From the NCBI GenBank assembly GCA_023265595.1, contig JAHFSU010000004.1, forward strand, positions 1,667 through 65,666: a stretch of DNA of 64,000 nucleotides, written 5' to 3'. This document shows positions 21,296 through 40,400 of this stretch, in pieces. The position numbers and the translations under genes are program-made. The stretch is from Deltaproteobacteria bacterium. GTDB lineage: Bacteria; UBA10199; SPLOWO2-01-44-7. The number at the start of each line of letters is the position of its first letter. The first letter of the stretch is position 1. The notes below the pieces were generated by a model. The model was not told where the DNA came from and did no database searches. It was given only the letters and a program-made list of their open reading frames with translations.

Positions 21296-21973
21296 ATGAG
21301 AATTCTGGTGGCGGAAGATGAGAAAAAGGTCCAGATATTCATCCGGCAAGCCTTGGAACAGGCGGGCATGACGGTCGATTCCGTCAAAACTTATTCGGAG
21401 CTCTTAGCCCTTTTGCAATCAACCTCCTATGACGCCCTCGTTCTCGACCGGTTGCTGCATGGCCGCGACATGGTCGATTCGCTCGGTGAAATCCGTGCGT
21501 ATGCAAAAAATGCCAAGCTGCTGATTTTAAGTGCCCTCTCCGACGTCGATGAAAAAGTCAAAGGTTTAAGCGAAGGGGCCGATGATTATCTCGGAAAACC
21601 GTTTCACGTGTCCGAGCTGCTTGCAAGACTCAGGGCCATCACAAGGCGCACCATTGAAAAAGGGACCGGAAAAGATACGCACCTTCGCTTCGACGACCTC
21701 TCCATCGATTTGGGGACTCAGAAGGTCTGGCGGGGCAACAATAAAATTATCCTGACCAACAAGGAATTTCGTGTCTTGTGTCTTCTGGCCCGCCACCCCG
21801 GTCAGATTTTTTCGAAGACGGCTATTTTAGATCAGGTTTGGGATCTCAATCACTATCCGGAGAGCAACATCATCGAGGTCACCATTGCGAATCTCCGTGC
21901 CAAAGTGGACAAAGGCCATAAACTGCTGATTCAGAGCCGGCGCGGTATCGGCTATTGGCTGGGCGAGTCATGA
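21296..21973 (+). CDS. OmpR-family two-component response regulator
   Basis: Receiver domain (MRILVAEDE...LDRLL..D) plus a winged-helix trans_reg_C region (..FRVLCLLARHPGQIFSKTAILDQVW..). Confidence 0.9.
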   Translation: MRILVAEDEKKVQIFIRQALEQAGMTVDSVKTYSELLALLQSTSYDALVLDRLLHGRDMVDSLGEIRAYAKNAKLLILSALSDVDEKVKGLSEGADDYLGKPFHVSELLARLRAITRRTIEKGTGKDTHLRFDDLSIDLGTQKVWRGNNKIILTNKEFRVLCLLARHPGQIFSKTAILDQVWDLNHYPESNIIEVTIANLRAKVDKGHKLLIQSRRGIGYWLGES

Positions 21974-26852: not shown

Positions 26853-26903
26853 GTGCGGTTGATTGCAACGGTTTTTGGCAAAAGTCCAGACTTTCCTTTA
26901 GAA

Positions 26904-26932
26904 GAGCATATGGTAGCAGCTACCATATGCTC
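26904..26932. promoter_or_regulatory. 29-bp perfect palindrome in the metH divergent promoter
   Basis: gagcatatggtagc-a-gctaccatatgctc, 14-bp arms. It lies 52 bp upstream of the metH start and ~96 bp upstream of the PCD gene start, so it is a candidate operator. Confidence 0.4.
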
Positions 26933-27027
26933 CTGTTGTGAAGGACACATACCACCGATGGAGTGATATTGATGGGGAATTTTTGATTGCCTTGACAATC
27001 GCAATCGGCCGAAAGTATGAACCGAAT

Positions 27028-27360
27028 ATGAGCAGCCTCTCCCAAAAAGAATGTCTCCCTTGCAAAGGGGGTATTCCTTCCCTGAAGGGGGAAAAATTGC
27101 AAAAGCTTCAGAAAGAATTGGGTAATGATTGGAATGTCGTCCGAGAGCATCATCTGGAAAAAGAGTTCAAATTCAAAAACTTTCGCGAAGCCTTAGGCTT
27201 TACCAATCGTGTCGGTGAGTTAGCGGAACAAGTAGGCCATCATCCCGATCTTTACCTCGCATGGGGAAAAGTTAAAATAACGATCTGGACCCACAAAATT
27301 GATGGCCTTACTGAAACCGATTTTATCTTTGCCGCAAAGGTCGATGTCCTGAATCAATAA
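27028..27360 (+). CDS. pterin-4-alpha-carbinolamine dehydratase
   Basis: About 110 aa with the conserved E-x-x-x-HHP core ..EQVGHHPDL...W.. of the PCD/DCoH family. Confidence 0.8.
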   Translation: MSSLSQKECLPCKGGIPSLKGEKLQKLQKELGNDWNVVREHHLEKEFKFKNFREALGFTNRVGELAEQVGHHPDLYLAWGKVKITIWTHKIDGLTETDFIFAAKVDVLNQ

Positions 27361-27791
27361 ATTTTATCAACCTTAATCGAAACAGGGGGATGGCCGACCG
27401 GAATCGGTTTTTTCGTTTTCCCTTCTAAATCCCCTTTTTGGGCCGGTCCAGCCAGTCCGTCTTGATCAATTCGAACCACAACAAAAAATTCGCCTTGAAA
27501 CGGAACATCGGACATCATGACATCGGCCTTCATTAGCTCAAATGATAGGGGAAATGTTCCGATCGGTAACCGCTTGACCGCCACCGGCGGACCCTGCTCT
27601 TGAGGTTTTGCCATGATGAATACGACCCCATGCGGTGGGATTTTCTTGGCGAACTTTGAATCGATCGTAACGGTTCCGGAAATCATCCCTCCATCCGCCC
27701 CGTTCGCCACCGGCTTGAATCCACTGTTACAACCAAAAACAAACAAGACCCCAAAAACCGCAACAACAGAAATAACCCAATTTGATTTCAT
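27354..27791 (-). CDS. hypothetical lipoprotein/secreted protein
   Basis: Start MKSNWVISVVAVFGVLFVFGCNSG (ATG 27791, GGGGGA RBS) is a lipoprotein-like signal. Confidence 0.5.
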   Translation of the reverse strand: MKSNWVISVVAVFGVLFVFGCNSGFKPVANGADGGMISGTVTIDSKFAKKIPPHGVVFIMAKPQEQGPPVAVKRLPIGTFPLSFELMKADVMMSDVPFQGEFFVVVRIDQDGLAGPAQKGDLEGKTKKPIPVGHPPVSIKVDKIY

Positions 27792-28669
27792 GATTTCCCC
27801 CTTGTTGAAGATGTTAATCCCAGCAGTTGAAATAACAATGGCCCCCCAAACGTCAACCAAAAACCGGCAAAGGCAAAAACCCACGTCTCTTTAGGCCCAA
27901 AGATCAAAAGAACCGGCACTAAAACAAGATTTCCAACCACAAGACGGACTAAACGTAAAAGAAACGGCCCACCCTCATCAAACATAAGCCATCGGCTTTT
28001 TGCCATCCATCCGAAACAGACACTCAACGTCAGATAAAGTGTTGCCAATCCCCAACTTGGAGGGACACCAGACGGAGCAAAAAGGATTAGAAAAACAGTG
28101 AAAAACAGAATCGCCCCAAAAATCCAAAAAACCATTGCCACGGATCGAAATCGCATAAAATATCTATCTAAACTTCCCTGCCACCTCCAAAAAAACCAGA
28201 GGGCCAAAGCCCCCAATACCCATCCCCCAAAAACATCGGTAGGATAATGAACTCCCAAATAAATACGCGAAAGCCCAATCAACAGAATGACCGTCACAGA
28301 CAAAAAGGTCACCCACCGTTTTTTGCAAAAAACAACCAGATAACCCCAATAAAGCATCCCATTCAATGCATGGCCCGAAGGAAAGGCGAAACCTTTTTCG
28401 TGCAAAATCCCAATCACATTCGGAAATGTTTGATACGGCCGCGGGAGCGCCACCACCGATTTAATCCAAAGACTGCTCCAATAATGAACAAATTGGGTCA
28501 AAAGGATAAGGCGGCAACCGAAGGAGTAAGAGATACACCAAACAAAACAACTCCACAAAAAAACAACCCCCTCAAAACCGCCAAAATAAGTTATAAATTT
28601 AAAAATCAAATCGAACTGGGGATGAAAATGGGTCTGAATCCAGATGATAAAGGGTTCTTGAAAGGCCAT
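27788..28669 (-). CDS. PAP2-family phosphatase (membrane)
   Basis: Multi-TM protein carrying the PAP2 motifs PSGH and SRIYLGVHYPTDV. Confidence 0.75.
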   Translation of the reverse strand: MAFQEPFIIWIQTHFHPQFDLIFKFITYFGGFEGVVFLWSCFVWCISYSFGCRLILLTQFVHYWSSLWIKSVVALPRPYQTFPNVIGILHEKGFAFPSGHALNGMLYWGYLVVFCKKRWVTFLSVTVILLIGLSRIYLGVHYPTDVFGGWVLGALALWFFWRWQGSLDRYFMRFRSVAMVFWIFGAILFFTVFLILFAPSGVPPSWGLATLYLTLSVCFGWMAKSRWLMFDEGGPFLLRLVRLVVGNLVLVPVLLIFGPKETWVFAFAGFWLTFGGPLLFQLLGLTSSTRGKS

Positions 28670-28695
28670 TTCAAATGTGGTTTAATAGGTCTACT

Positions 28696-29163
28696 ATGAA
28701 AAAACAATCCCTTTTTTTCTTTCTTGTTTTAATCCCCGCCCTTTCTTTGGCTCAGGCAAAAAAAACGGTCATCTCTGTGGAACAAAATAGTGATCCTCGT
28801 CTCATCGGCACATGGGCCACCGATTGTCTCACTCCCAGATTGGAGGATCCATGGTCTGAGAGACACACGTTTGTTTTTTATAAAAACTTTATGGCCCGAC
28901 ATGAACGGATTGCCTTTGATGCGCCGGGTTGTGCTGGTTCTGTTATCAACCATTTTGTCGACAACTACAAATATGTCATCGAAGGAAAAGTGTCGACAGG
29001 AGAAGGGGGCGGGCTGATTATTCTCAAAGGGGATAAAGGGGCCATGCAAGACAATTATTTTGTTGCCGGAAATATATTGACGTTTGGTCACGGTTTCCGC
29101 AACACCCAAAGCTATGGCACCCCTCTCAACACCTATCTTATTTACAAAAAACTCAGCAAATGA
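28696..29163 (+). CDS. secreted hypothetical protein
   Basis: Signal peptide MKKQSLFFFLVLIPALSLAQA. No known motif. Confidence 0.5.
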   Translation: MKKQSLFFFLVLIPALSLAQAKKTVISVEQNSDPRLIGTWATDCLTPRLEDPWSERHTFVFYKNFMARHERIAFDAPGCAGSVINHFVDNYKYVIEGKVSTGEGGGLIILKGDKGAMQDNYFVAGNILTFGHGFRNTQSYGTPLNTYLIYKKLSK

Positions 29164-29792
29164 AGTATCTATTTGCAACCGGCTTTTTATTTTTGAGTGC
29201 GGTCTCTCTGGCCGAATCTTTTGGCATGCTCCCCATCCCCGCTTTCAAACTGGCGATCCCCTACCCGCAAGGCTGGCAACATAATATTAATTTGGGAATG
29301 GGGGGATCTTTCGTAACACTCGATTTTACCCCCAACCAAGGAGATAAAAAAGCCCCCTCCGTTTATTTCATGGCGGCAAAAACAACGCAGATGACGCAGA
29401 TGGGAATGGGCGGGATGGGAGGGGCATTAAAAGGAATGAAAAATATACCGAGTGTTCCGGGCGTCGGTGGCCGATGGAGCGGAACACAAGCGGCTCCCGC
29501 CGGAGCCTCTTCCTCGGGGGAGCAAACCTCCCAAGCTGCATCGGGTGCGGCAATGCCGACGCCCGATATGCCCGCCTCCAACAAATCGATTGTTTGGTTA
29601 GGACAAAGGGTTGACAAAATGGACAGCACCGAAACACTTGAAGATGGATTGACGATCAAAACGCGCGGCGTTTCGGCGTTGATCGGAGATAAATCGGTCA
29701 TGTTTTCCTGCTCCGCCCCAGAGGAACTTTTCACTGTCGCATTTGGAAAGTTATGTGATCAGATTATCAAAGGGATGAAATGGATCCATTAA
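29160..29792 (+). CDS. secreted hypothetical protein (Gly/Met-rich middle)
   Basis: Signal peptide MKYLFATGFLFLSAVSLA, then GMGGMGGALKGM and Ser/Ala-rich low complexity. Confidence 0.5.
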   Translation: MKYLFATGFLFLSAVSLAESFGMLPIPAFKLAIPYPQGWQHNINLGMGGSFVTLDFTPNQGDKKAPSVYFMAAKTTQMTQMGMGGMGGALKGMKNIPSVPGVGGRWSGTQAAPAGASSSGEQTSQAASGAAMPTPDMPASNKSIVWLGQRVDKMDSTETLEDGLTIKTRGVSALIGDKSVMFSCSAPEELFTVAFGKLCDQIIKGMKWIH

Positions 29793-29885
29793 ATCAGTTG
29801 CCTAAAAACTCTTTCACCCTTATAATAGCTAAGCGATCAATGCCAAATAAATATTTTATTTTCAATGAGTTAGAAAGGATTTTCT

Positions 29886-30767
29886 ATGCCGGACTCTATC
29901 CAAATTCAAGAGTCCAAGACGGACATCATTTCAGTTCTTCCAAAGGAAATTATCCGACTGGAACCACGTCCGGAGGTGCAAAGCTATACCTTTAATGCCT
30001 ATCATCTTGCAGAGGCCTTAAAATTAAAAGAAATCGCCAAAATTTTTGAACTCAAACCGCATTTATTCAACCCGACGCAGCTCGTCTATGAACTGGCTGA
30101 AAATGGTTATTGTCTCTTTTATAATTTTGGTTCGGTTGTTTTTTTCAATGTTGACGAAACCGTTCAAAAAACGACCCTCGAAAGGATTAAAGAATTTCTC
30201 CCCAGCTCTGCAGAACCGGTTACCAGCGATGAATTTTTATTGGAGGTGGAACGCAAAACCAAGACGGAGGTCTTTTTTGAAAAAGTCGTTGTCGATAAAC
30301 TGACCCGCGAAAAAATCAAGCTCATCGCTTTAGTTTTGGCTCAATCGACAGCGTTGGAATATTTTGAAAACAAGGTAGAAGAAATTTTAAACCAATTGGG
30401 AGAGATTACCTCCCAACTTGGAAAAGCCAAAAAACTATCGGTTCCCGAGAAAAAAATCCGTCGGTTTATCGGACAAACCATGGCGACTAAGCAAAACCTG
30501 ATTGCCACCCTTTATCTCTTGGAAAAACCGGAAGAGACATGGGAGAGTAAAACACTGGATGATCTCCACCAAGAAGCAACATTGATGTTCGAACTACGCG
30601 ATCGCTTCCGTACCGTTGATTACAAACTCAAAATGATCCAAGACAATCTGGAGGTTCTCGCCAATTTTGCCACCAACCGACAGCATCTTCTGTTGGAATG
30701 GGCTATTGTCGGACTGATTGTGTTCGAAGTCATTTTGATTCTCTCCCAAATGTTTTTACAAAAATAG
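29886..30767 (+). CDS. DUF155/RMD1-like family protein (probable)
   Basis: 293 aa with a single C-terminal TM (EWAIVGLIVFEVILIL) and overall layout resembling DUF155. Assignment is by resemblance only. Confidence 0.4.
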   Translation: MPDSIQIQESKTDIISVLPKEIIRLEPRPEVQSYTFNAYHLAEALKLKEIAKIFELKPHLFNPTQLVYELAENGYCLFYNFGSVVFFNVDETVQKTTLERIKEFLPSSAEPVTSDEFLLEVERKTKTEVFFEKVVVDKLTREKIKLIALVLAQSTALEYFENKVEEILNQLGEITSQLGKAKKLSVPEKKIRRFIGQTMATKQNLIATLYLLEKPEETWESKTLDDLHQEATLMFELRDRFRTVDYKLKMIQDNLEVLANFATNRQHLLLEWAIVGLIVFEVILILSQMFLQK

Positions 30768-30770
30768 TTT

Positions 30771-32297
30771 TCAAAACTCTCCCTCCCGATCCAAGGAACG
30801 ATATTGAATGGCTTCCGCAATATGCTGTGTACTCATCATCTCTTTTCCTTCAAGATCCGCCACGGTACGAGCGATTTTTAGAATTTTATCATGGGCCCTG
30901 ACGGAGATTTTCAGAGCGGGGAACGTTTTACGAAAAAACCGCGCGGCTTCATCGGTCATCGGACAATAATGACGCAGCCATTTTGCCGGAATCTGCGCGT
31001 TACAAACAATTTTTAAATCTTTGAAACGCGGATATTGAAATTCCCGCGCCCGCAAAACTCTCTCCAAAATCTGCATCGATTTTTCATTAGGGATATTATC
31101 AAAAATGTCCTTTTCTGTTGGAACGGTGACCTCAACATGAAGATCGATCCGGTCCAAAAGAGGGCCAGAAATTTTGCGCCGATATTGAAAAACATGTCCC
31201 GGCGCGCAAACACAATGACGATGCGGATGTCCGAGATAGCCGCATTTGCAAGGATTCAGCGCCGCAATCATTTGAAAACGGGCCGGCAGTTTGAGCCTCC
31301 CTTTGGCGCGTGTGATCGTGACAAAACCCGATTCGAGCGGTTGCCGGAGCATCTGCAAACTATCCCGGCGGAATTCGGGCAGCTCATCCAAAAACAAAAC
31401 GCCGTTGTGCGCCAATGTAATTTCTCCGGGCGCCAACAGGCCATCGCCGCCACCGATCAATCCGGCATAAGAAATAGAGTGGTGTGGCGAACGAATAGGC
31501 GGCGTGTCAATCAGCGGACGCTGGGGATCCAGCAAACCTAAGGCACTATAAATTTTGCTTGTTTCAAAAATTTGTTCTTCGGTCAGTATGGGCAAAATCA
31601 TCGGGAAACGATTGGCAAGCATTGTTTTACCGGAGCCCGGCGGCCCCATCATGATCATATGATGCCCTCCCGCCGCAGCAATCTCCAAACCCCTTTTGGC
31701 AAATACCTGTCCCTTGACATCACTCAAATCGAGACGTTCTGCTTCTGTCCCTTTTATTTTTTCGAAAACCGGTTCCATCGATGGCCGTTTTTGATGCTGA
31801 ATAAATTCTAAAACTTCCGCAATATGGACACAGCCGATAACCTCAACTTCCTTTATCAAACGCGCTTCTTGCGCATTGGCTTTGGGACAAATCAACGCCT
31901 CGATTTTTTTCTGTCGCGCCAAAAGAGAAAAAAGGAGGGTTCCTTGGATGGATTTTAATTCACCGGTTAACGAGAGCTCCCCGACAAACAAAAATGAGGT
32001 CAACGGTTTTTGCAACACACCATGCGCTGCCAGAAGCGCAAAGGCTATGGGCAAGTCATACTGAGTCCCGCTTTTTTTCTGTGTGGCGGGCGCCAGATTG
32101 ATGGTGGTTTTGCGTGCTTCTAAATGAATACCGCTATTGCGAAGAGCGGCATGAACTCGGTCCCTAGATTCTTGCACCCCCTTTTCCGGCAGCCCCACCA
32201 TTTGCCAAGATGGAAGACCATTGGCAATATCGACCTCCACTTTTATCAAAGAGGCCTCAAAACCAAAAATGCCTGCAGAGTAAGTCGTTCCAATCAT
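30771..32297 (-). CDS. YifB/ComM family Mg-chelatase-like AAA+ ATPase
   Basis: Start MIGTTYSAGIFGFEASLIKVEVDIANGLP (ATG 32297). Walker A GPPGSGKTMLA, Walker B FLDELPEF, and the C-terminal helix conserved in ComM. Confidence 0.85.
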   Translation of the reverse strand: MIGTTYSAGIFGFEASLIKVEVDIANGLPSWQMVGLPEKGVQESRDRVHAALRNSGIHLEARKTTINLAPATQKKSGTQYDLPIAFALLAAHGVLQKPLTSFLFVGELSLTGELKSIQGTLLFSLLARQKKIEALICPKANAQEARLIKEVEVIGCVHIAEVLEFIQHQKRPSMEPVFEKIKGTEAERLDLSDVKGQVFAKRGLEIAAAGGHHMIMMGPPGSGKTMLANRFPMILPILTEEQIFETSKIYSALGLLDPQRPLIDTPPIRSPHHSISYAGLIGGGDGLLAPGEITLAHNGVLFLDELPEFRRDSLQMLRQPLESGFVTITRAKGRLKLPARFQMIAALNPCKCGYLGHPHRHCVCAPGHVFQYRRKISGPLLDRIDLHVEVTVPTEKDIFDNIPNEKSMQILERVLRAREFQYPRFKDLKIVCNAQIPAKWLRHYCPMTDEAARFFRKTFPALKISVRAHDKILKIARTVADLEGKEMMSTQHIAEAIQYRSLDREGEF

Positions 32298-32423
32298 GAT
32301 TGCTGAGTATGCAAACGGTGTGCCGACTTTTTCGCCCACTGATTTTCTGTGGGGATAATCTTGGGTGCCGTTTTTCGTACACAGGTGCCGAAAATCGTCT
32401 ATTTCAATAGACAGGAACACAAA

Positions 32424-32540
32424 ACTTTAGTCCGTCTGATTCAATTTTTGATTCAATTTTTTAACTTTAGTGAGTCTGCTTTAGTTGACGAACCTCTCTG
32501 AACCCGCTAGTTAGTCCGTCTGGTTTTAGTCCGTCTGAAA
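32424..32540. promoter_or_regulatory. four direct repeats of TTTAGTCCGTCTG upstream of the tolC-RND operon
   Basis: TTTAGTCCGTCTGATT (32426), the degenerate TTTAGTGAGTCTGCTT (32466), GTTAGTCCGTCTGGTT (32510) and TTTAGTCCGTCTGAAA (32525). The core is the reverse complement of the locally over-represented CAGACGGACT. Confidence 0.45.
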
Positions 32541-32548
32541 TTTCTTTA

Positions 32549-33832
32549 ATGATTAAAAGAACTTTTGCCATCATTTTGTTTCTTGTTGCATGTAATATGA
32601 AGGGTTCTACATTTGCTCAAACACCCTCCCCCATTACTCTACGAAATTGTTTTGAGAAAGCTTTGGAAGTGAGTGAAAGGGTCGCCATCCAAGAATCACA
32701 AATTCGGGCAGCCGAAGCAAAATATGGACAGGCGTTGGCAGCCATCCTTCCCAATGTCCATTTTATTGCAACGGAATTTTTGCAAGATGACTCTGCACAA
32801 CAACTCGGCGCCGGACAAATTGGAACCACGCTTACCCGTTTCTCAACGCCAACGGCAAAATTGAACGCCAAACAGCCCCTATTTAATGGTTTACGCGAAT
32901 ATTATGCCCTTTCCGTAGTCCATTCTCAAAAAAGACAAAATAAAGCCGAATGGGAAAATGCCAAAAGAAAATTGTTTGTCGATGTCGCCAATGCTTTTTA
33001 CACCGTTATCCAATTGGAAAAAGATTTGGAATTGGCCAAGGCCATTACAAAAACACTAAAAAGACGCCTCAAAGAGTCGATCACGAGAATGGACCTTGGC
33101 AAAGCCAGGGCCTCAGAAAAAATGAACACCGAATCCGAATTAGCGATTGCGGAAGCGGCCGCTAGCGAAACAGAAGGGGGACTTGCCGCGGCCAAAGAAG
33201 TTTTGGCTTTTTTCATCGGTCCTTACAATGCACCTCTGCTAGATGACGTAGAAATCCCGTCTGCGCCTAAAGAAGAAGATTTCGTTCTCAAATCCGACGA
33301 AAACCGTCCCGATATTGTCGCCGCAAAAGAAGCGGCATTTAGTTCGCGTCAAAAATTAAAAATCGAAAAGGGGGCTTTTTTTCCCACCATTAATGCGGAA
33401 GCAAATTATTATGCTTATCGTGTCGGATTTCAAAAGGATATCAAATGGGACGCCCTCTTTACACTCGATTTCTCGATTTTTGAGGGGGGAAAAACGAGGG
33501 CCAAAATTCAGGAGGCCAAAATTTTGTTAAAGCAAGCAGAGCTGGAACTCGATGAAAAACGACGCAATGCCAATCTCGAAATCAAAAAAGCCTATGAGGC
33601 CTTCACTCATGGACAAAAGCAAAGTGAAGCCTTTAAAATAGCGGAAACAAAGGGTGAAGAAAATTATCGGGTATCCTTAAAAGATTACCAGTTGGGATTA
33701 ATCAACAATCTTGAATTACTGGAAGTGTTGAGAAGTCTACAAAATGTCAGACGGACTTACAACCGAGTTTGGTTGCAGACCAAAATGGATTATCTCAATT
33801 TGAAGGCGAAAGCCGGAAAACCGTTGCTATGA
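32549..33832 (+). CDS. TolC-family outer membrane efflux protein
   Basis: Signal peptide, then two coiled-coil/beta-barrel repeats with an OMF-type N-terminus ..ITLRNCFEKALEVSERVAIQES..LPNV... Confidence 0.8.
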   Translation: MIKRTFAIILFLVACNMKGSTFAQTPSPITLRNCFEKALEVSERVAIQESQIRAAEAKYGQALAAILPNVHFIATEFLQDDSAQQLGAGQIGTTLTRFSTPTAKLNAKQPLFNGLREYYALSVVHSQKRQNKAEWENAKRKLFVDVANAFYTVIQLEKDLELAKAITKTLKRRLKESITRMDLGKARASEKMNTESELAIAEAAASETEGGLAAAKEVLAFFIGPYNAPLLDDVEIPSAPKEEDFVLKSDENRPDIVAAKEAAFSSRQKLKIEKGAFFPTINAEANYYAYRVGFQKDIKWDALFTLDFSIFEGGKTRAKIQEAKILLKQAELELDEKRRNANLEIKKAYEAFTHGQKQSEAFKIAETKGEENYRVSLKDYQLGLINNLELLEVLRSLQNVRRTYNRVWLQTKMDYLNLKAKAGKPLL

Positions 33833-36800
33833 ATATTTCTGAAATTTCGATACGCAACCCCGTTTTTGCTTGGATGTTGATGATCGGGCTTATTTTTTTT
33901 GGATTTATCAGTTTTAGCCAAATGGGGGTCTCTGAAATGCCCGATGTCGATTTTCCCGTTGTCACCATTCATACCACACTGGAAGGAGCGGCTCCCGAAG
34001 TCATGGAGACCGATGTGGTGGATGTGATCGAAGATGCGGTCACCGGTATTCAGGGAATACGCAATCTCTCCTCAACCGCCAGACAGGGAATGGCAACGGT
34101 GAGCGTTGAATTTGAACTCGATAAAAATATTGATGTGGCTGTTCAAGAGATCGATTCCAAAGTGACCCAAGCAGTAAAAAATCTTCCCAAAGAGATGGAC
34201 CCCCCTATTGTTACCAAAACCAATCCGGAAGATCAGCCGATCCTGTGGCTTTCTCTCTCCGGAAACCGTCCTCTCCCCTTCATGATGCAATACACAAGGG
34301 ATCATCTCAAAGATCAGTTTCAGACAGTGGCCGGCGTTGGCGATATTTTTCTGGGCGGGTTCATCGAACCTAATTTAAGGGTCTGGATCGATCAAAAAAA
34401 GCTGGAAGAATATGAGTTAACTGTTCAAGATATCATCAACGCTATCAATACAGAACATATCGAACTCCCTGCCGGCAGAATTGAAACAGACAAGACGGAG
34501 TTAAATGTCCGAGCCATGGGAGAAGCCATAACCCCGGAAGAATTTGGCAATATTGTGATTCCAAAACGGGGGGGAGTCCCGATTTATAAACCGATTTACT
34601 TAAAAGAGGTCGCCCATATTGAGGAGGGTCTTAATGACGTGCGCCGCATTTCAAGGACAAATGGGGAGCCCGCTGTTGGCTTAGGGATTCGGAAACAGCG
34701 GGGATCCAATTCCGTAGCCGTAGCGACCCGTGTCAAACAAAAGCTCTTGGAATTACAAAAACTTTTGCCAGACGGACTAAAATTAAATGTCAATTTTGAC
34801 AGCACCCGATTTATTCAAGACTCGGTCAACGAACTCAAATTTACTCTCTTTTTGGCAGCCCTTTTGACCTCTGTAGTTTGTTGGCTTTTTTTGGGTTCAT
34901 GGAGTTCCACCATCAATATATTAATGGCCATTCCGACATCGATCGTTGGAACATTCATTGCCCTTTTCTTTCTAGGCTATACTCTCAACACATTTACCTT
35001 TTTGGGTTTAATCTTGGCCATTGGAATCGTTGTGGACGACGCCATCATGGTCCTCGAAAACATTTTTCGTCACCAAGAAAATGGAGAAGATAAATTCACC
35101 GCAGCGATCCGAGGATCCAAACAGATCACTTTTGCAGCCCTTGCCGCCACATTATCGGTTGTTGCTATTTTTATCCCCGTTGCTTTTATGAAGGGGGTTA
35201 TCGGAAAATTTTTTCTCCAATTCGGGGTTACAATGTCGGTAGCTGTTTTGCTCTCTCTTTTGGAAGCATTAACCCTGACACCCATGCGCTGTTCCCAATT
35301 TGTGGAAGCCGGTGCCAGAACCAGCCGCATTGGAAAGGCATCGGATACTTTCTTTAGGACTCTGAGCCTTCGTTATCATCGTTTTTTAAAAATCTGCCTG
35401 AATCACCGATGGAAAGTAGTCAGTTTATCGATGATGGTTTTCGTCCTCTCCCTGACGATTTTCGTTTTTTTGAGAAAAGAGTTTGTGCCGCCCCAGGACC
35501 AAAGCATGTTCTTGATCTCTTTTAAAACACCCGTCGGGTCTTCTATCGATTTTACTTCTGAAAAAGCCAAACAAATCGAGGACTTTCTTGCAAGACGGAC
35601 TGAAGTCTTGCGTTATTTCGTAGCCGTGGGTGGTTTTGGTGGAGGAGAGGTCAATCAGGGAATGGTTTTCATCACATTGAAGCAACCCAACGAAAGAAAA
35701 CTAACACAACAACAATTGATGTCCGTCTGCCGTGAATCTTTTAATAAAATTACGGATTTAAAAGTGTATTTAATGGATCTTTCTACTCGCGGATTTACAG
35801 CCAAGAGGGGTTTTCCAATTGAGTTTACAGTACGTGGTCCCAATTGGGAAAAACTCGTTGACCTATCCCAAACGATCCAAAAAAAGATGGAAAAAGAAAA
35901 AAAATATTTTACCGATGTCGACACCGATTATCTGGCGGATGTGCCTGAAATACATGTGGTACCCGACCGGGAAAAGGCAGCGGCAAGAGGTGTCAATATT
36001 GAAACAGTCAGCCAAACCATCAATGCACTGGTTGGCGGAATTCGAGCTGGAAAATTCAAACAAAATGGGAGGCGCATTGATATTCGAGTCCGTCTCGTTT
36101 CAGAAGCGAGGAATAAGCCGGAAGATATCAAACAGTTATGGATACGAAATAACCAAGGCGAGATGGTCCAGTTAGGAGATGTTGTCAAAATCGAACAGGT
36201 ACCGACTTTGTTAACGATTACTCGAGAAGATCGAGAAAGAGCCATCAGCGTCTTTGCCAATGTAACTCCCGGAGCTTCACAAGCAGACGGACTGAATGAA
36301 GTGCAAAAAATTGCAGCTCAAATTTTGCCAGAAGGTTATCATATTGTCCTGACCGGCTCCGCGGAAACATTCAAAGAATCCTTTCAAAACCTATTCTTTG
36401 CGCTCTATCTTGGCATTGTTGTGGCTTACATGATTTTAGCCAGCCAGTTTAATTCCTTTTTACACCCATTTACCGTTTTACTGGCTCTTCCTTTTAGCAT
36501 TTCTGGAGCCGCCCTTGCGCTTTTTATTACCGGAAACTCTCTGAATATTTTCAGTATGATCGGCATTATTTTATTGATGGGAATTGTGAAGAAAAATTCC
36601 ATTTTGTTAGTTGATTTTACAAATCAACGAAGAAAAGACGGACTGAATGTAAAAGAGGCTCTACTGGAAGCATGTCCTATTCGCCTGCGTCCCATTTTGA
36701 TGACTTCCATAGCTACTATCGCTGCAGCCATTCCGCCTGCCCTGGCTCTAGGACCAGGTGCTGAGGCAAGAGTTCCCATGGCCGCTGCTGTTATCGGTGG

Positions 36801-36906
36801 TGTTTTCTTATCTACACTTTTGACTCTTTTTGTTGTTCCTTGTGCCTATAGCCTTCTCTCTCACCGGGAAAAACAAGACGAACGACGAAAAGAAGACAGT
36901 CCCTGA
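33829..36906 (+). CDS. RND (HAE1/AcrB-like) efflux pump
   Basis: About 1025 aa with 12 TM segments and two large periplasmic loops. Start MNISEISIRNPVFAWMLMIGL overlaps the tolC stop as ATGA. Classic AcrB blocks are present. Confidence 0.9.
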   Translation: MNISEISIRNPVFAWMLMIGLIFFGFISFSQMGVSEMPDVDFPVVTIHTTLEGAAPEVMETDVVDVIEDAVTGIQGIRNLSSTARQGMATVSVEFELDKNIDVAVQEIDSKVTQAVKNLPKEMDPPIVTKTNPEDQPILWLSLSGNRPLPFMMQYTRDHLKDQFQTVAGVGDIFLGGFIEPNLRVWIDQKKLEEYELTVQDIINAINTEHIELPAGRIETDKTELNVRAMGEAITPEEFGNIVIPKRGGVPIYKPIYLKEVAHIEEGLNDVRRISRTNGEPAVGLGIRKQRGSNSVAVATRVKQKLLELQKLLPDGLKLNVNFDSTRFIQDSVNELKFTLFLAALLTSVVCWLFLGSWSSTINILMAIPTSIVGTFIALFFLGYTLNTFTFLGLILAIGIVVDDAIMVLENIFRHQENGEDKFTAAIRGSKQITFAALAATLSVVAIFIPVAFMKGVIGKFFLQFGVTMSVAVLLSLLEALTLTPMRCSQFVEAGARTSRIGKASDTFFRTLSLRYHRFLKICLNHRWKVVSLSMMVFVLSLTIFVFLRKEFVPPQDQSMFLISFKTPVGSSIDFTSEKAKQIEDFLARRTEVLRYFVAVGGFGGGEVNQGMVFITLKQPNERKLTQQQLMSVCRESFNKITDLKVYLMDLSTRGFTAKRGFPIEFTVRGPNWEKLVDLSQTIQKKMEKEKKYFTDVDTDYLADVPEIHVVPDREKAAARGVNIETVSQTINALVGGIRAGKFKQNGRRIDIRVRLVSEARNKPEDIKQLWIRNNQGEMVQLGDVVKIEQVPTLLTITREDRERAISVFANVTPGASQADGLNEVQKIAAQILPEGYHIVLTGSAETFKESFQNLFFALYLGIVVAYMILASQFNSFLHPFTVLLALPFSISGAALALFITGNSLNIFSMIGIILLMGIVKKNSILLVDFTNQRRKDGLNVKEALLEACPIRLRPILMTSIATIAAAIPPALALGPGAEARVPMAAAVIGGVFLSTLLTLFVVPCAYSLLSHREKQDERRKEDSP

Positions 36907-36985
36907 CCAAATACGTCCGTCTGAAATCTCTGAGATCAATTTAATTTCTTTTATGCTTGGCATATCTCTTGCATTGATTTTTAGC

Positions 36986-37705
36986 ATGTCGTATCGCGCT
37001 CGATATGAAATTATCTGGGATGGCGCTACTTTTCACGTCACATGGCAATGCCATAACCATTCCTGGCTTATGCAATACGACTGGGCCAAACAGCTCTATT
37101 ATGATTTATTGCTGAAATATAAAAACAAATATGGTGTCAGTTTTTATTCTCACCACTTTATGGACAATCACGTCCATCTTTCCGGGAAAATAAATAAAAC
37201 AAAAGAGGAGTTTTCAGCACTATTCCAAGTTGTCAATACCATTCTAGCTAAAAAAATAAATAAACGTCTAAAAAGAAGGGGGCAAGTCATTATGGATCGA
37301 TTTAAATCCCCATGTATTCAATCAGACAAAGATCAATTGGCGGTAATGACTTATCACGACTTGAATTCATGGAGAGCACAAAAAGTGAAACATCCCAAAG
37401 AATACCAATGGAGCTCTTATGGTTATTATGCTTATGGAAAAAAAGATCCATTGATCACTCCAGCCCCAGCCTATCTGGGCTTAGCTAATACAAATGAGGC
37501 AAGACAAAAAATCTATCGCAAACTAATAGCTTCTATTATGGAGGAAGAGGGTATAAAAAGAAAAAATTATTCCAGAGTTTATTATATTGGAGATCCAAAT
37601 TGGGTATTAGAAAGAAAAAAACGGCTCAAGGAAATAAAACAAATTAAGAGGGAAGCATTCCTCTTAAGACAAAAAAGACAGATATATGCACAGGCACCGC
37701 CTTAA
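36986..37705 (+). CDS. REP-associated tyrosine transposase (RAYT, IS200/Y1 HuH family)
   Basis: Start MSYRARYEIIWDGATFHVTWQCHNH. HuH motif FMDNHVHLSG. C-terminal motif YHDLNSW...EYQWSSYGYY, the Y-x-W-S-S signature of RAYTs. Short (239 aa), single copy, no terminal IS inverted repeats. Confidence 0.75.
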   Translation: MSYRARYEIIWDGATFHVTWQCHNHSWLMQYDWAKQLYYDLLLKYKNKYGVSFYSHHFMDNHVHLSGKINKTKEEFSALFQVVNTILAKKINKRLKRRGQVIMDRFKSPCIQSDKDQLAVMTYHDLNSWRAQKVKHPKEYQWSSYGYYAYGKKDPLITPAPAYLGLANTNEARQKIYRKLIASIMEEEGIKRKNYSRVYYIGDPNWVLERKKRLKEIKQIKREAFLLRQKRQIYAQAPP

Positions 37706-37875
37706 ATTCCATTTTTTACTAAGGATAAAACAAAAATAAAAACCAAAAAAGCTGTTATTTGTACACGTGTATTATTATCCCCATTCTACAGCTATCCTCG
37801 ACCGTCAAAAAATGCTACTTCCAATTTTTATCAAAAGTTATAAGGTTCCCTCTATATAATGCTTAAATAATTTTC

Positions 37876-40356
37876 ATGATTTCCTGGATTATTCTTCCAT
37901 CTGAAAAAGCCGCAGAACGGATAAGACGGACATCCTTTTCCCAATCGAACCAATCCGTTTGGTTGGGAGAGACCTTTTTTTCTCTTCAGCATTTTTTAAA
38001 TAAGCTATCTGGCTCCCACACCAACCTTCTCAAGAAAAGCCTGCAAAAACATCTATTGGCCCATTGTCTTAAACAGCATCCGCTCAAATATTTTGAGAAG
38101 CAAAGACACCTCGGCTACTTGACTACTATTTTTATGACAGCCATTCACCGTCTAAAACAGGCAGATTTAAAACCAGACGGACTAAAAGAGAGGCTAAAAG
38201 AGAGCGGATCCCTCAAAGAATATGATCTTTTGATCACTTATCAGCGCTATGAAGAACTCAAGACAAAACTCGGCTGTATTGATAGCGAAGATCAATATGC
38301 ATCCGCTGTGGCAAACCTCAACAATCCCGAAAACCCATTAAAAATGATAACATCCATCACCTTTCAAGATTTTGACGAAGAACCAGACGGACTGAAAAAA
38401 TTGCTCCACAACATCGCCCAAAACTACCCCCAAATCCATATCGATTTCCAAAAAATTCCGACACAAGAAGCACCACGTCCATCAAACAATCCGCAACCGA
38501 CACCGGTCCAACTCTTTTCTCTCCCCACACCCCATCAAGAGAGCCATTGGTTTGTAAGGCAGCTTGAAAAAATCGCTTCCGACACAACAAAAACGAACGA
38601 TATCGGTATTTTGATGTCGGGCCCTGCCGGCTATTACGAATTCGTCTGGAAACTTTTGCAACAGATGCAGTTGACAGAAGGCCCCTACCCCTTCTCTAGT
38701 TGGCACGAAAGGCCGGAAGGGCGTTCCGTTCTGGAAGAGGCGGCGCAATTAAATCTCGAAAAGGCCACATTGACCGAATATCTTTCAGAACTGGTTCAAA
38801 AAATCCCTGTAGAAAATCCCCTCTTCGAATTTCTGGAGTCCTTTTATTTTCAGGAACACATTTTAAGCCTCGGCCATCTCTCGCACTCGGAATGGCTTTT
38901 GTGGCTCCACGAAGCGCTGGAGGAAAAACCGAAGCGGTCGGTTCCCGAATCGCTGCAGGGAATCCAATGGCTTCTCTTTGGCGAAAGAGATTATCCTCAT
39001 TTGGAATATCTTTGGGTTCCCAATTTAACGGAAGGCGCCTTTCCTCTGCAAGCGCCACAGGTTTTTTTTCAAGAGATGAAAGATCGGGGTCGGCCCGAAT
39101 GGAAACCGATTTGTGCAGCATTTCCGGACCCGCAAAAGTCCTTTGAACGACAATACAAAATGTTCCACCACACCCTGTCCCACACACACAAAACCACATG
39201 GCTCACTTTCCCTAGAATGGATAGTCTCGGTGGAGACCAATCCCCCTCTCCGTTCACATGGGATTTTGGCGAGCCCCAAAATGTCGAAACAAAATCGCCG
39301 TCATTTTTCGGCAATAATGAGGAAAAAATCCGAATCGATAAAAAATGGAAAATCGAACGGGAAAGACTCGACAACCATCTCGAAACAAAAGCGTTCCATA
39401 CCGAATTGGGGACCATACCCCTGCCGCCAAACCATATTTTCAGCCCTTCACAGCTGGAGACCTACGCTGAATGCCCGTTTAAATATTACTCACGAAAGAT
39501 CCTGAACATCCCTCAAATCAAAGAGCATTCGCCGGAGCTGGATCCCGATGATAAAGGAACACTTTTTCACAATTGCCTCGAGGCATTGCTGCGTCAGGAA
39601 GGAAAACTGTATGCGGAAGCCAGAAACAACCGTAAAAAAGAAGACGAACTGTATCTGAAATTAAAAGCGACGGTCGAAAAAGTTTTTCAGGAGTCGGCAA
39701 AGGAACTCTGCTATGCGCATCCGGAACTCTACCAGCGCCTGAAAGAGAAAACCATGGCACAGGCCGTGCAACTACTCGGAAATGAACTCGAAGAATCACG
39801 AAAATTGGAAAAACCTCTGACCCCAACCTATTTTGAATGGACATTTGGTCCCTCACCGGAAGAGGCCCTCCGAATTGAGGCACAAGATAAAAAAGAACCG
39901 ATCCAAATTGGTGGACGCATCGACCGAATCGATTGCGATACAAATTCCAAATCATTTATGGTGCTGGATTACAAAACTGGTTCCATCAGCGGATTCAAAG
40001 ACAAATTGATGGAAGGATTGTCGCTGCAGCTCCCGATTTATCTTTTAGCCGTAAAAAAATTATTGCTCCCCGATTATCAAATCGTCGGCGGCATGCTCCT
40101 CTCCACCCGTTCCGGAAAAAAGGAGGCGGGATTGGTCGACAATCAATTTAATGAACAGCATTATCAATTGGGAAAAAGATCCGGCGCTCTCATGGATTCG
40201 GAAAAATTAGAGGCAGTGATTCAATCCACGGTCGTGCACATTCAAAACTATGTCGCTCAAATGCGAAAAGGTTATTTTAGCGCGCAACCGAAAGATTGCA
40301 AAGTCCGCTGCGATTACAAAGAGATTTGTCGCTATGCCCACAAACCGTTTGCATAA
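37876..40356 (+). CDS. addB: AddB-like helicase-nuclease subunit (PD-(D/E)XK nuclease with C-terminal Fe-S cysteines)
   Basis: C-terminal RecB-type nuclease motifs GRIDRID...MVLDYKTG and the Cys cluster CPFKYY...C-x2-C-x5-C (CKVRCDYKEIC). Lies immediately upstream of a UvrD-type AddA gene. Confidence 0.7.
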   Translation: MISWIILPSEKAAERIRRTSFSQSNQSVWLGETFFSLQHFLNKLSGSHTNLLKKSLQKHLLAHCLKQHPLKYFEKQRHLGYLTTIFMTAIHRLKQADLKPDGLKERLKESGSLKEYDLLITYQRYEELKTKLGCIDSEDQYASAVANLNNPENPLKMITSITFQDFDEEPDGLKKLLHNIAQNYPQIHIDFQKIPTQEAPRPSNNPQPTPVQLFSLPTPHQESHWFVRQLEKIASDTTKTNDIGILMSGPAGYYEFVWKLLQQMQLTEGPYPFSSWHERPEGRSVLEEAAQLNLEKATLTEYLSELVQKIPVENPLFEFLESFYFQEHILSLGHLSHSEWLLWLHEALEEKPKRSVPESLQGIQWLLFGERDYPHLEYLWVPNLTEGAFPLQAPQVFFQEMKDRGRPEWKPICAAFPDPQKSFERQYKMFHHTLSHTHKTTWLTFPRMDSLGGDQSPSPFTWDFGEPQNVETKSPSFFGNNEEKIRIDKKWKIERERLDNHLETKAFHTELGTIPLPPNHIFSPSQLETYAECPFKYYSRKILNIPQIKEHSPELDPDDKGTLFHNCLEALLRQEGKLYAEARNNRKKEDELYLKLKATVEKVFQESAKELCYAHPELYQRLKEKTMAQAVQLLGNELEESRKLEKPLTPTYFEWTFGPSPEEALRIEAQDKKEPIQIGGRIDRIDCDTNSKSFMVLDYKTGSISGFKDKLMEGLSLQLPIYLLAVKKLLLPDYQIVGGMLLSTRSGKKEAGLVDNQFNEQHYQLGKRSGALMDSEKLEAVIQSTVVHIQNYVAQMRKGYFSAQPKDCKVRCDYKEICRYAHKPFA

Positions 40357-40365
40357 GGAGCTGGA

Positions 40366-40400
40366 TGCCTCGTTGTTTTTCACGAGGAATCCGGCTCCTT
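40366..40400. repeat. degenerate REP-like family-1 copy in the addB-addA spacer
   Basis: tgcctcgttgtttttcacgaggaatccggctcctt. Confidence 0.45.

Follow-up and report, generated by a model that had tools for sequence, protein, structure and literature searches.

Closest described systems

The systems closest to the one considered here are the REPtrons of E. coli and Pseudomonas, in which a RAYT (TnpA_REP) gene is accompanied by REP or REPIN repeats; intragenic copies of REPs are on record (PMC3733652). A second type, the TIRYT/TIRtron (Di Nocera 2013), corresponds to TnpA_Y1 subclass 2.1 (Quentin 2018) and to RAYT Group 1 (Bertels 2017), and automatic and manual searches by Quentin et al. found no REP-like sequences for subclass 2.1. 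A further class, the CGTC-tagged REPs, has been reported without a dedicated transposase (Di Nocera 2013). Here we describe a 64 kb stretch of a metagenomic contig (the window) in which a short DNA box is scattered through and between genes in the neighborhood of a RAYT-like gene. We consider it probable that this box is the cognate recognition sequence predicted for a widespread clade of ~238-aa RAYT-like Y1/HUH proteins, which includes the product of 36986-37705.

A short box concentrated in one part of the window

A sequence-only reading of this DNA had reported a local excess of a 10-mer, and this is borne out: CAGACGGACT occurs exactly 8 times in the window versus 0.00 expected (100 shuffles), at 32429(-), 32513(-), 32528(-), 33748(+), 34769(+), 36284(+), 38174(+) and 38384(+). 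The copies listed in that reading were mostly right, with 33758 to be corrected to 33748, and the list lacked four 9-mers, at 26284(+), 27454(-), 27942(+) and 36087(-); degenerate copies of the kind it mentioned are present at 32469 (AGTGAGTCTG), 36914(-) and 37923(+). The 9-mer core AGACGGACT, the only over-represented 9-mer in the window that is not A/T-rich, is found in 14 copies against about 0.2-0.5 expected in the whole window; all 14 fall within 12.1 kb (26.28-38.39 kb), and none in the remaining ~52 kb of contig within the window. The density is ~1.4/kb over 10 kb, or ~1.2/kb locally across the cluster, and exact copies far outnumber one-off variants. Similarly, the 7-mer AGACGGA occurs 20 times at 26.2-38.4 kb versus 1.5 expected, and 6 times in the other 51.6 kb versus 6.3 expected, which is chance level. 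An independent Logan assembly (L002) matches 31385-42169 except for 2 SNPs, 0 of them in boxes. Both strands are used (9:5), 11 of the 14 copies are intragenic, and a GAA extension is seen in only 2-3 of 14, the conserved flank being the other side of the box. On our reading, the 10-mer is the local dialect, [C/A]AGACGGACT[A/G]AA, of a box that is short and asymmetric. The intergenic array and the variant boxes containing AGACGGA are as follows:

32429..32537, - strand: four direct boxes forming an orphan array between comM and tolC (intergenic region of 128 bp)
32429-32438, 32513-32522 and 32528-32537, - strand: exact members of the array
32469-32478, - strand: degenerate member of the array (AGTGAGTCTG)
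28070, + strand: variant box, AGC
29917, + strand: variant box, ACA
30262, + strand: variant box, AGG
34493, + strand: variant box, AGT
35722, - strand: variant box, ACA
37924, + strand: variant box, ACA

These variants, spread over 28070..37930, differ at box positions 8-9 only, the two that also change from lineage to lineage in the family described below.

Boxes inside genes and the corresponding sites in relatives

The exact intragenic copies encode DGL six times and RRT twice in sense, and VRL three times in antisense:

26283..26292, + strand: metH, box AAGACGGACT, antisense; GTC CGT CTT, VRL
27454..27463, - strand: gene for a 145-aa protein with an Ig_CycH domain, box AAGACGGACT, sense; CAA GAC GGA CTG, QDGL
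27941..27950, + strand: PAP2 gene, box AAGACGGACT, antisense; GTC CGT CTT, VRL
33748..33757, + strand: tolC 3' end; GTC AGA CGG ACT TAC, VRRTY
34769..34778, + strand: acrB; CCA GAC GGA CTA AAA, PDGLK
35592..35601, + strand: acrB, box AAGACGGACT; GCA AGA CGG ACT GAA, ARRTE
36087..36095, - strand: acrB, antisense; CGA GTC CGT CTC, RVRL
36284..36293, + strand: acrB; GCA GAC GGA CTG AAT, ADGLN
36635..36644, + strand: acrB, box AAGACGGACT; AAA GAC GGA CTG AAT, KDGLN
38174..38183, + strand: addB; CCA GAC GGA CTA AAA, PDGLK
38384..38393, + strand: addB; CCA GAC GGA CTG AAA, PDGLK

The peptides named earlier (PDGLK, ADGLN, KDGLN, ARRTEV and VRRTY) are encoded as claimed. Because three frames, both strands and intergenic DNA are occupied, the signal lies at the level of DNA and not of protein, as had been proposed, and relatives are without the motif at the sites compared. 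We compared eight sites in tolC, acrB (the RND gene) and addB with orthologs, using three outgroups for acrB and one relative for tolC and addB: the box is absent from the relatives at 8 of 8 sites, with no indel at any of them. At tolC 33748 the relative (L003) reads GTG GAA AGA ACC TTG. Several of the acrB boxes are derived in the lineage of the window, as polarised by the three relatives, which have PEGL, PEGF and PSGM at 34769 without indel, AKSL, TIAI and GEAL at 36284, and RDGL (GAT GGG CTC), QEGR and KQGL at 36635. At 35592 all three have Pro (KRPE, NRPE, TRPD) where the window has Thr; on this alignment Pro to Thr is a derived nonsynonymous change completing the box. At 36087, RVRL is also found in the two nearest relatives (L003, L059; RTRL in L060), so that relative to them this box is made by synonymous changes only. 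In addB, the relative (L001) has CCA AAC GGA CTG AAA at 38174, and at 38384 the site reads CCT GCG GCG CTT AAA (PAALK), with five mismatches to AGACGGACT. The 38174 box shares an 18-nt exact inverted match with array copy 32511-32528, which in a test for patch copying is not significant against a column-shuffle null (P=0.06-0.08). What is unusual is that point substitutions have, on our reading, placed the box in at least six unrelated genes of the neighborhood.

The box brackets RAYT homologues in metagenomes

Using a RAYT alignment we collected 71 non-redundant metagenomic loci. Inward-facing copies or arrays of [C/A]AGACGGA[G/C] bracket the RAYT homologues in about 60 of these 71 independent loci, which strongly supports one of the explanations first offered for the cluster, that of a RAYT-associated target or REP-like motif. 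The geometry is regular: boxes lie on the + strand 79-160 bp upstream (the nearest 79-126 bp before the start codon in most loci) and on the - strand 200-330 bp downstream. Across the 71 loci, AGACGGA[G/C] occurs within 750 bp upstream at 3-9 copies/kb, 100 on + and 8 on -, and its downstream peak at 200-500 bp comprises 80 on - and 1 on +; with a chance rate of 0.06/kb, box density near these genes is 50-150x chance, and by 5-6 kb it is down to roughly background level. Where the flanks are long, family loci mostly have proximal boxes only (0.1-0.3/kb), and the window is an outlier.

Direct arrays are often spaced by 12, 21, 31 or 42 nt; there is no general hairpin at the boxes (mean folding z about 0) and the GT[AG]G foot is absent. 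Further satellite arrays and single boxes are seen in the neighboring few kb of family loci, with arrays like that between comM and tolC in the next intergenic regions of five RAYT loci (L104, L106, L107, L127, L089). Intragenic boxes near a RAYT gene also recur in L098 (mazG, murJ, nagZ) and L106 (murJ, holA, SLT). Two murJ boxes are at the same codons in both, synonymous positions included, and a D>E change in murJ accompanies a switch from ACT to AGT in step with the dialect of each lineage. The 7-nt core is conserved across RAYT-like proteins only about 50% identical, and positions 8-9 change along the RAYT phylogeny in the way expected of recognition dialects. At all conserved positions (C/A at -1, AGACGGA, C/G) the window boxes agree with the family profile.

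The RAYT-like gene and its own ends

36876..36892, + strand: degenerate left-end module AGACGAACGACGAAAAG of the RAYT element, 110 bp before the ATG at 36986
36914..36923, - strand: box CAGACGGACG, downstream of the acrB stop and upstream of the RAYT start, in inverted orientation to the left-end module
36986..37705, + strand: RAYT-like Y1 (HUH) tyrosine-transposase gene, 239 aa

An in-frame ATG at 36953 would make the protein 250 aa. It is matched by Pfam Y1_Tnp (23.9-24.3 bits, cutoff 23) and, under the cutoff of 80, by NCBIfam REP_Tyr_transpos (39.5); its AlphaFold model (pLDDT 79.5) has the E. coli RAYT 4ER8 as top PDB match, followed by IS200/IS608 TnpA. The HUH (NHVH) and Tyr (YHDLNS) motifs are intact in the family alignment (A1), and a domain search detected no DNA-binding domain outside the HUH core. 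GC is 0.36 in the gene and about 0.47 in the contig. The same sample contains a second paralogue (P0029, 68% identity).

The gene had been placed at the centre of the cluster; in fact 12 of the 14 copies precede it. Nor do 36915(-) and 37923(+) form the flanking inverted pair that had been suggested: their orientation is opposite to that of the family ends, the real left end is the degenerate module at 36876-36892, and the right-hand copy is a conserved addB codon string. Since the 37924(+) variant is kept in the addB of a relative, it may be incidental. The left module overlaps the last acrB codons and aligns with CAGACGGACGACGRAAA...TGACGGAAAT, the left-end module conserved in the six closest homologues (L146, L145, L064, L065, L068, L095), from which it differs by a G>A change within the box and by the loss of 1 nt in its second half. 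Downstream, no canonical right end is present. As read from these alignments, the gene itself is intact but has decayed ends: the left one is joined to the acrB tail and the right one is gone, while perfect boxes form an unusually dense cloud of 12 kb around the gene. L146, the closest homologue (71% identity), shows the same order of parts before the gene: after a (+) left module comes a (-) box, 48 bp ahead of its start codon; this box, CAGACGGACTAAAACCA, is identical over 17 nt to array copy 32521-32537(-), and the box dialect is common to the window and this homologue. Because the cloud reads ...ACT versus ...ACG in the element's own module, which is degenerate, and the right end is missing, the local RAYT-like protein may not, or may no longer, be the agent of the cloud. 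The orientation of the cloud also breaks the inward-facing rule, copies downstream of the gene being on +.

Origin of the box cloud

In the reading that we favor, the inward-facing boxes or arrays bracketing the gene in the standard layout would act as the two ends of the element, and the RAYT-like protein would bind and/or nick the box, mainly in cis. Intergenic arrays would grow as short box-bearing units insert beside existing boxes. Within genes, a weak, persistent and directional force would turn near-matches into perfect ones where the codon context is tolerant (DGL, RRT, VRL); this force could be templated conversion of short patches, with nearby boxes as templates, or selection for binding. 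For the accumulation of boxes near the gene, the candidates are biased conversion, selection for binding and import; we know of no enzymatic route by which a Y1 transposase makes sites by substitution.

Import on its own would mean that 26-38 kb, or parts of it, recombined from a related lineage with the ACT box dispersed genome-wide in a REP-like manner, the cluster then marking a mosaic tract and not cis action of the local gene. This is unlikely, if the most viable of the alternatives. Genes in 26.9-38 kb have a GC3 of 0.41-0.48 versus about 0.52 in the rest, the tolC-acrB pair is in a different context in a relative MAG, and synonymous-codon identity to that MAG is 0.46-0.48 for tolC-acrB versus 0.56-0.59 for addBA-gshA. 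However, the compositional signal for the acquired block that had been suggested is weak: GC3 is just as low in some other genes of the window, neither composition nor divergence shows a sharp boundary, and the sliding identity profile of addB is flat across 38.4 kb, where the boxes end. No candidate donor with ACT boxes at high density came to light, and the box is a RAYT-family box either way.

An operator family of a transcription factor for comM and/or tolC-acrB, such as the OmpR-type regulator at 21296-21973, is improbable to a greater degree: four direct copies do fill the 128-bp divergent promoter region and a two-component system is encoded 10 kb away, but 11 of the 14 copies are intragenic, no sigma-70-like promoter was detected in the comM-tolC region, and the box accompanies the RAYT gene in loci whose neighboring genes are unrelated.

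We give slightly less credence still to a DUS/USS-like uptake sequence built up by biased uptake and recombination. Substitution-type intragenic copies among which exact ones dominate are the classic pattern of uptake sequences, and this pattern, in several frames and at the local density noted above, is what the window displays; comM adjoins the cluster, TCCGTCTGAA resembles the neisserial DUS, and the DUS core, reverse-complemented, gives the family consensus TTCAGACGG. Yet the other 52 kb of the window are free of copies, contradicting an uptake signal, the GAA extension is rare with the conserved flank on the other side, and the box flanks, in a strict geometry, one particular gene family across many unrelated metagenomes. 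The same emptiness of the flank, and of addA, makes a Chi-like hotspot for the adjacent AddAB enzyme scarcely credible. Chi sites are 5-8 nt long, genome-wide and strand-skewed, whereas these copies are on both strands and confined to 12 kb, even if addB and addA adjoin the cluster, two copies are within addB, and the L064 RAYT homologue lies between addB and an addA-like gene. Lastly, protein-level constraint or chance, to which DGL in 6 of 8 sense copies and a phage protein repeat (FKPDGLKMYVIG in L022) encoded by the same nucleotides might point, is refuted by the three frames, both strands and intergenic copies, by identical codons across copies, by orthologues without both peptide and codons, and by shuffles yielding 0 matches.

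Comparison with known systems

The recognition box that we propose for the RAYT-like clade recalls the neisserial DUS (GCCGTCTGAA) in a 7-9 nt resemblance, the dominance of exact copies and their tolerance in coding sequence, where they arise by substitution. It differs in being local within the window where the DUS is genome-wide, tied to a transposase gene, without a conserved GAA end and hosted by a deltaproteobacterium-like MAG. Its reverse complement, TCCGTCT, contains the CGTC of the CGTC-tagged REPs (Di Nocera 2013), but those are palindromes of 20-40 nt with CGTC at one end, and the box has no adjacent stem.

With the TnpA of IS200/IS605 elements (IS608, ISDra2), the protein shares the catalytic fold, and their tetra/pentanucleotide cleavage and target sites are comparable to the short specific box; the growth of arrays beside existing boxes would be accounted for if one short sequence served for cleavage and as target. 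Unlike the window locus, those elements have subterminal hairpins as ends, in direct and not inverted orientation, and are multicopy and near-identical; no tnpB is found at the window locus.

The family resembles REPtrons in that a single or low-copy Y1/HUH gene, whose product in the window is structurally closest to 4ER8, stands between inverted copies of a short repeat; this repeat is also found elsewhere nearby, and its variants co-vary with the protein lineage. Because the box is short (8-12 nt) and mostly without hairpin, it is not a canonical REP; it also lacks the foot, often forms direct arrays and keeps its 7-nt core across divergent proteins. Moreover, the window copies are mostly intragenic, substitution-derived and local, whereas REPs are extragenic, inserted and genome-wide.

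The TIRYTs have a published TIR consensus, GGGGWSAS, that is not CAGACGGA, and the C-terminal HTH similarity described by Quentin et al. was not detected in the window protein. By their described features, the likeness otherwise takes in a length of ~238 aa, NH[V/I]H and Y..LN[P/S] motifs, inverted terminal sequences in place of REP hairpins, moderately abundant clustered repeat families, prevalence in 'Deltaproteobacteria' and about 2 divergent paralogues per genome (PMC3733652, PMC6006769).

A strictly local box around a RAYT-like transposase gene

The box at the center of this analysis has as its invariant core the 9-mer AGACGGACT, of which the window holds 14 exact copies, all within 26284–38393 (about 0.2 expected). 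Its longer form CAGACGGACT is present in 8 copies as against none in dinucleotide-preserving shuffles; the sequence-only reading had listed all 8 correctly save the one given at 33758, which lies at 33748. Among the over-represented 9-mers of the window only the core is not A/T-rich, and the conserved motif is 9–12 nt long, with the extended consensus c[C/A]AGACGGACT[A/G]A[A/C]. Its 7-mer AGACGGA is seen 20 times in 26.2–38.4 kb (1.5 expected) and 6 times in the other 51.6 kb (6.3 expected), and thus the signal is real and strictly local; exact copies of the box are absent from the other 52 kb of the window. The core copies are divided 9:5 between the strands, while the GC skew of the window is monotonic. 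An independent Logan assembly (L002) matches 31385–42169 at 99.98% identity, eleven copies included, the two SNPs that distinguish it both falling outside boxes.

The cluster lies in the following gene neighborhood:

Before comM: metH, a pterin dehydratase gene, an Ig_CycH-domain gene, PAP2, two unannotated ORFs and a DUF155 gene
30771–32420, minus strand: comM
32597–33832: tolC
33829–36906: acrB
36986–37705, plus strand: RAYT-like gene
After the RAYT-like gene: addB, addA and gshA

Eleven of the 14 exact copies are intragenic, being found in metH, the Ig_CycH-domain gene, PAP2, tolC, acrB (five) and addB (two), and their frames read DGL (six) or RRT (two) in sense and VRL (three) in antisense. 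In the 128-bp comM–tolC intergenic region, a direct array combines the three remaining exact copies with a degenerate one. A search of 25–40 kb gave no Rfam match, and promoter and terminator scans of the region were uninformative. The unannotated ORFs at 28675–29792 were considered as DNA binders and rejected, as their products resemble secreted proteins.

Origin of the intragenic copies

The nearest genome is the “Deltaproteobacteria bacterium” MAG GCA_030688705.1, with about 70–75% nucleotide identity over its contigs L001 and L003; the genome-contig scan recovered only one relative (73% identity). The 9-mer has no copy in either contig or in the outgroup loci L059 and L060. Of the eleven intragenic copies, the alignments cover the eight for which relatives could be compared, those in tolC, acrB and addB. 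For acrB three relatives are available; for tolC and addB there is a single one, such that alignment alone cannot separate gain from loss. When codon-aligned, none of the eight sites shows an indel, and on this evidence the copies there are not inserted elements. Hence, insertion of a REP or MITE, judged against up to three relatives, is rejected for these copies. Segmental duplication is rejected as well, given that no repeat longer than about 18–37 nt surrounds the boxes.

In acrB the relatives often agree with one another against the window. At one site the window has PDGL where they have PEGL, PEGF or PSGM; at another it has RRTE in place of KRPE, NRPE or TRPD, a proline common to all three relatives having given way to threonine. 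At the site encoding RVRL, L060 has RTRL but the two nearest relatives share the window’s peptide, and the codons have gone from GTT CGT TTG to GTC CGT CTC. Those acrB copies that the outgroups polarize therefore arose by substitution in the window lineage, some of them at the cost of conserved residues. That the signal acts at the DNA level had been proposed from the sequence alone, with a check of the relatives’ tolC, acrB and addB for the motif, and it is borne out by the lack of the 9-mer in the relatives and by the spread of copies over three frames, both strands and intergenic DNA.

The comparison also yielded two observations on the relatives themselves. First, tolC and acrB (OEP plus RND; 32597–36906) overlap by 4 nt without an adjacent periplasmic adaptor (HlyD/MFP) gene, an adaptor-less two-gene layout shared by L003, L059 and L060. 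Second, GCA_030688705.1 has a near-identical GC-rich repeat of about 175 bp, unrelated to the box, at about 14660–14840 of L003 (after acrB) and at 1–175 of L001 (before addB), which probably causes the assembly breaks.

The RAYT-like gene and its ends

The protein scores just above the cutoff of the Pfam Y1_Tnp model (23.9–24.3 against 23) and below that of the NCBIfam equivalog REP_Tyr_transpos (39.5 against 80). Its predicted structure, with two long C-terminal helices, finds its best PDB fold match in the Escherichia coli RAYT (4ER8), followed by the IS200/IS608 TnpA. The HUH and tyrosine motifs are intact: the former reads NHVH here and NH[IVP]H family-wide, and the latter takes the form YHDLNS or Y[IQ]DLN[SP] in proteins of 238–250 aa. 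A Pfam search of 20 members of the protein alignment at E ≤ 1, a method weak for short HTH domains, found no HTH-like C-terminal domain; besides Y1_Tnp, no family matched more than 5 of the 20, and none of these was an HTH. Likewise, no DnaA_C-like domain was detected, and no tnpB adjoins the gene. The gene (36953–37705) is poorer in GC (0.36) and GC3 (0.33) than the contig (about 0.47 and 0.52), and in 25 of 34 family loci gene GC is below that of the flanks. Homologs are common: a profile search recovers 7,101 clusters at E ≤ 1e-10, a number that falls to 137 at E ≤ 1e-30. Homologs in plasmid records are only about 30% identical.

The left-end module conserved among the closest homologs, CAGACGGACGACGRAAA...TGACGGAAAT, has an aligned counterpart in the window at 36876–36892 (AGACGAACGACGAAAAG), which overlaps the final acrB codons and differs by G>A within the box and by the loss of 1 nt. 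This is followed by a minus-strand box at 36914; L146, the locus of the closest homolog (71%), likewise has a plus-strand module and then a minus-strand box. The latter box, CAGACGGACTAAAACCA, has 17 nt identical to the window array copy at 32521–32537, and therefore the ACT dialect of the cloud (i.e., its dense local copies) belongs to the window’s RAYT lineage. The window lacks the canonical right end: past the RAYT stop codon, its DNA shows no homology to the right flanks of the relatives and runs into addB. The copy at 37923 (+), once taken as an inverted right flank of the gene, has the wrong orientation and also belongs to a string of addB codons conserved in L001.

A second RAYT paralog from the same sample, P0029, is 68% identical to that of the window. 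It lies at a contig end (P0029/P0144; ENA sample ERZ27297570), next to Pkinase-PEGA and FHA-GGDEF genes, which in the relative MAG are 8 kb upstream of tolC–acrB; this position suggests rearrangement at RAYT genes. Distant from the cluster, the window has a half-box inverted pair of the AGT dialect, CCGTCTG-N14-AGACGG (13105–13135), and one intergenic CCAGACGGAGTAAAA (4895–4909), which may be cognate to P0029. In a Logan contig (L064, 77–6183), a 69%-identical homolog lies between addB and an addA-like gene, with an exact AGACGGACT in the addB 3′ end. Thus, this RAYT lineage is linked to addAB more than once, though not at one and the same position.

The box as an end sequence across the family

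The three homologous loci examined first are L062 and L063, both with AGACGGAGT, and L064, with AGACGGACG; in each, inverted near-copies of the box flank the gene. A metagenome scan with the protein alignment gave 80 loci, 71 of them non-redundant, and copies of [C/A]AGACGGA[G/C] bracket the gene in about 60 of these 71. In the first 750 bp upstream, 100 boxes are on the plus strand and 8 on the minus; 200–500 bp downstream, 80 are on the minus strand and 1 on the plus. Box density peaks at 6–9 per kb (0.06 expected) and falls to about background by 5–6 kb. In most loci the nearest upstream box is 79–126 bp from the start codon and the nearest downstream box 202–290 bp after the stop. Arrays are frequent, and adjacent boxes are preferentially spaced by 12, 20–22, 30–33 or 41–43 nt, which hints at helical phasing. 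Positions 8–9 of the box (CG, GT, GC, GG or CT) vary by lineage, roughly in step with the protein phylogeny; exactly AGACGGACT[A/C]AA is used in L097/98, L108, L142, L088, L099, L101 and L084. Folding of 77-nt single-stranded segments at the nearest boxes gave mean z-scores of −0.7 to +0.1, with 2–15% below −2; a hairpin is seen in one sub-clade only (L118, L103, L089 and L073), and GTAG follows the box in only a few right ends (L064–L067 and L074). As judged from sequence and position, this geometry shows the box to be the cognate end sequence of the family.

Intragenic boxes are also seen in other loci. L098 has them in mazG, in a GH3/nagZ gene and twice in murJ, where both fall within the Pfam domain, and L106 in murJ (two), holA and an SLT gene. 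The two murJ boxes (4518 and 4778 in L098; 1327 and 1587 in L106) occupy the same codons in both lineages, whose MurJ proteins are 72% and RAYT proteins 66% identical. Synonymous positions within them are conserved, and a D>E difference turns ACT into AGT, matching the dialect of each lineage. This conservation argues that intragenic boxes are maintained as sites. In L107 (5201–5474), carB has an in-frame insertion of seven boxes within the MGS-like domain, translated in several frames (KTDEVAW..., QDGRQDGR and SDGANLSD); hence, insertion-type intragenic copies exist too.

Proposed mechanism and alternatives

In the reading that we favor, the RAYT-like protein would bind or nick the box, mainly in cis. 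Arrays would grow by the insertion of short units beside existing boxes, following an IS608-like logic in which the cleavage site is also the target site. The intragenic boxes would be near-matches in tolerant codon contexts driven to a perfect match, either by short-patch templated conversion from nearby boxes or by selection for binding. Conversion is hinted at by the longest exact run between copies, 18 nt common to one box of the array and one in addB; the best flank similarity is 18/30, and patch-copying tested against a column-shuffle null was not significant (P = 0.06–0.08). A bolder and, on balance, unlikely reading is that the Y1/HUH gene is tied to a cis-acting directional process, a form of molecular drive, which would turn near-matches in neighboring conserved genes into the box by substitution rather than insertion.

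The cloud copies are confined to about 11–12 kb around the RAYT gene. However, a simple cis model has to contend with several observations: the ends of the window’s own gene are decayed, the orientation of the cloud is not inward-facing, the same sample holds the paralog P0029, and a cloud this dense is missing from most family loci. Alternatively, the cluster could be a mosaic import from a box-rich relative. Its slightly lower GC3, and a tolC–acrB context and divergence pattern that differ from those of the neighbors, speak for such an import, which we nevertheless consider quite improbable. A reading of the copies as regulator sites is not supported.

No branch of the Y1 transposase superfamily is larger, or less well understood, than that of the long (~238 aa) RAYT-like genes. 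A short box that recurs clade-wide in a fixed geometry offers a defined substrate on which binding and cleavage can be assayed, as well as a search handle for annotating RAYT-like elements in MAGs. Boxes attributed to substitution in acrB, addB, tolC, murJ elsewhere and, by position alone, metH point to a DNA-level force that alters conserved residues, which resembles the drive of uptake sequences, yet is tied to a transposase gene; were it enzymatic, repeats would have a way of propagating that is new. If molecular drive holds, a transposase-type element could seed essential coding sequences with its sites while leaving them intact, and, as a corollary, the largest RAYT group, reported to be without cognate repeats, would include a clade with a defined 8–9 nt box. 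The finding also explains why assemblies of such genomes break and why their k-mer counts show odd spikes, and it counsels caution against uptake or Chi readings.

Comparison with known systems

Both of the latter readings had been raised for this cluster, and neither is supported. DUS/USS occur genome-wide at about 1 per kb on both strands, whereas the box has no exact copy, and its 7-mer only chance frequency, in the 52 kb outside the cluster; its likeness to the neisserial DUS, already suspected to be coincidental, is limited to a 7–9 nt core and is most simply a coincidence. Chi sites, read by AddAB/RecBCD, are 5–8 nt, genome-wide and co-oriented with replication, whereas the box is 9–12 nt, divided 9:5 between the strands and local. 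Full-text literature searches found no papers linking the box to tyrosine transposases, queries with the motif alone or with “tyrosine transposase” returning only primer noise. A viral-contig scan for CAGACGGACTRAAAA gave 55 single background matches; the sole triple match, in the IMG/VR contig L022 (2326–2793), is a phage protein with tandem FKPDGLKMYVIG repeats encoded by AAACCAGACGGACTAAA; the repetition there is at the protein level, and its likeness to the motif is due to chance.

IS200/IS605 elements have direct subterminal hairpins, multiple near-identical copies and often tnpB, whereas the box family has inverted ends without hairpins, paralogs that are only 68% identical and no adjacent tnpB. 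In length, motifs and host range the protein resembles the group variously described as TnpA_Y1 subclass 2.1, RAYT Group 1 or TIRYT. Compared by description, subclass 2.1 proteins (~238 aa; NH[VYF]H and Y[IV][EH]LNP) have motifs close, though not identical, to those of the window protein, and their C-terminal HTH-like domain (Bac_DnaA_C, HTH_23 or HTH_28) was not detected in the box family. Quentin et al. reported no REP-like sequences for this subclass (PMC6006769); among the TIRs described by Di Nocera et al., some have the consensus GGGGWSAS and others are unrelated to it (PMC3733652). Unlike the GGGGWSAS-bearing TIRYT ends, those of the box family carry CAGACGGA[G/C].

The layout is like that of REPtrons, in which a Y1 gene is combined with inverted cognate repeats: this is seen family-wide (100:8 upstream and 1:80 downstream), though the window itself retains only a degenerate left module and one inverted box, with the right end absent. 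REPs are imperfect palindromes of 20–40 nt that form a hairpin with a GT[AG]G tetranucleotide at its 5′ foot, whereas the box, with its AGACGGA core, lacks the tetranucleotide and has no general hairpin. Moreover, REPs are extragenic and dispersed genome-wide, whereas 11 of the 14 box copies are intragenic and all are local. The cluster is best regarded as a RAYT/REP variant, with a clade-wide, non-palindromic box of 8–9 nt in arrays at both gene ends, among which the window’s cloud of substitution-derived intragenic copies is exceptional.
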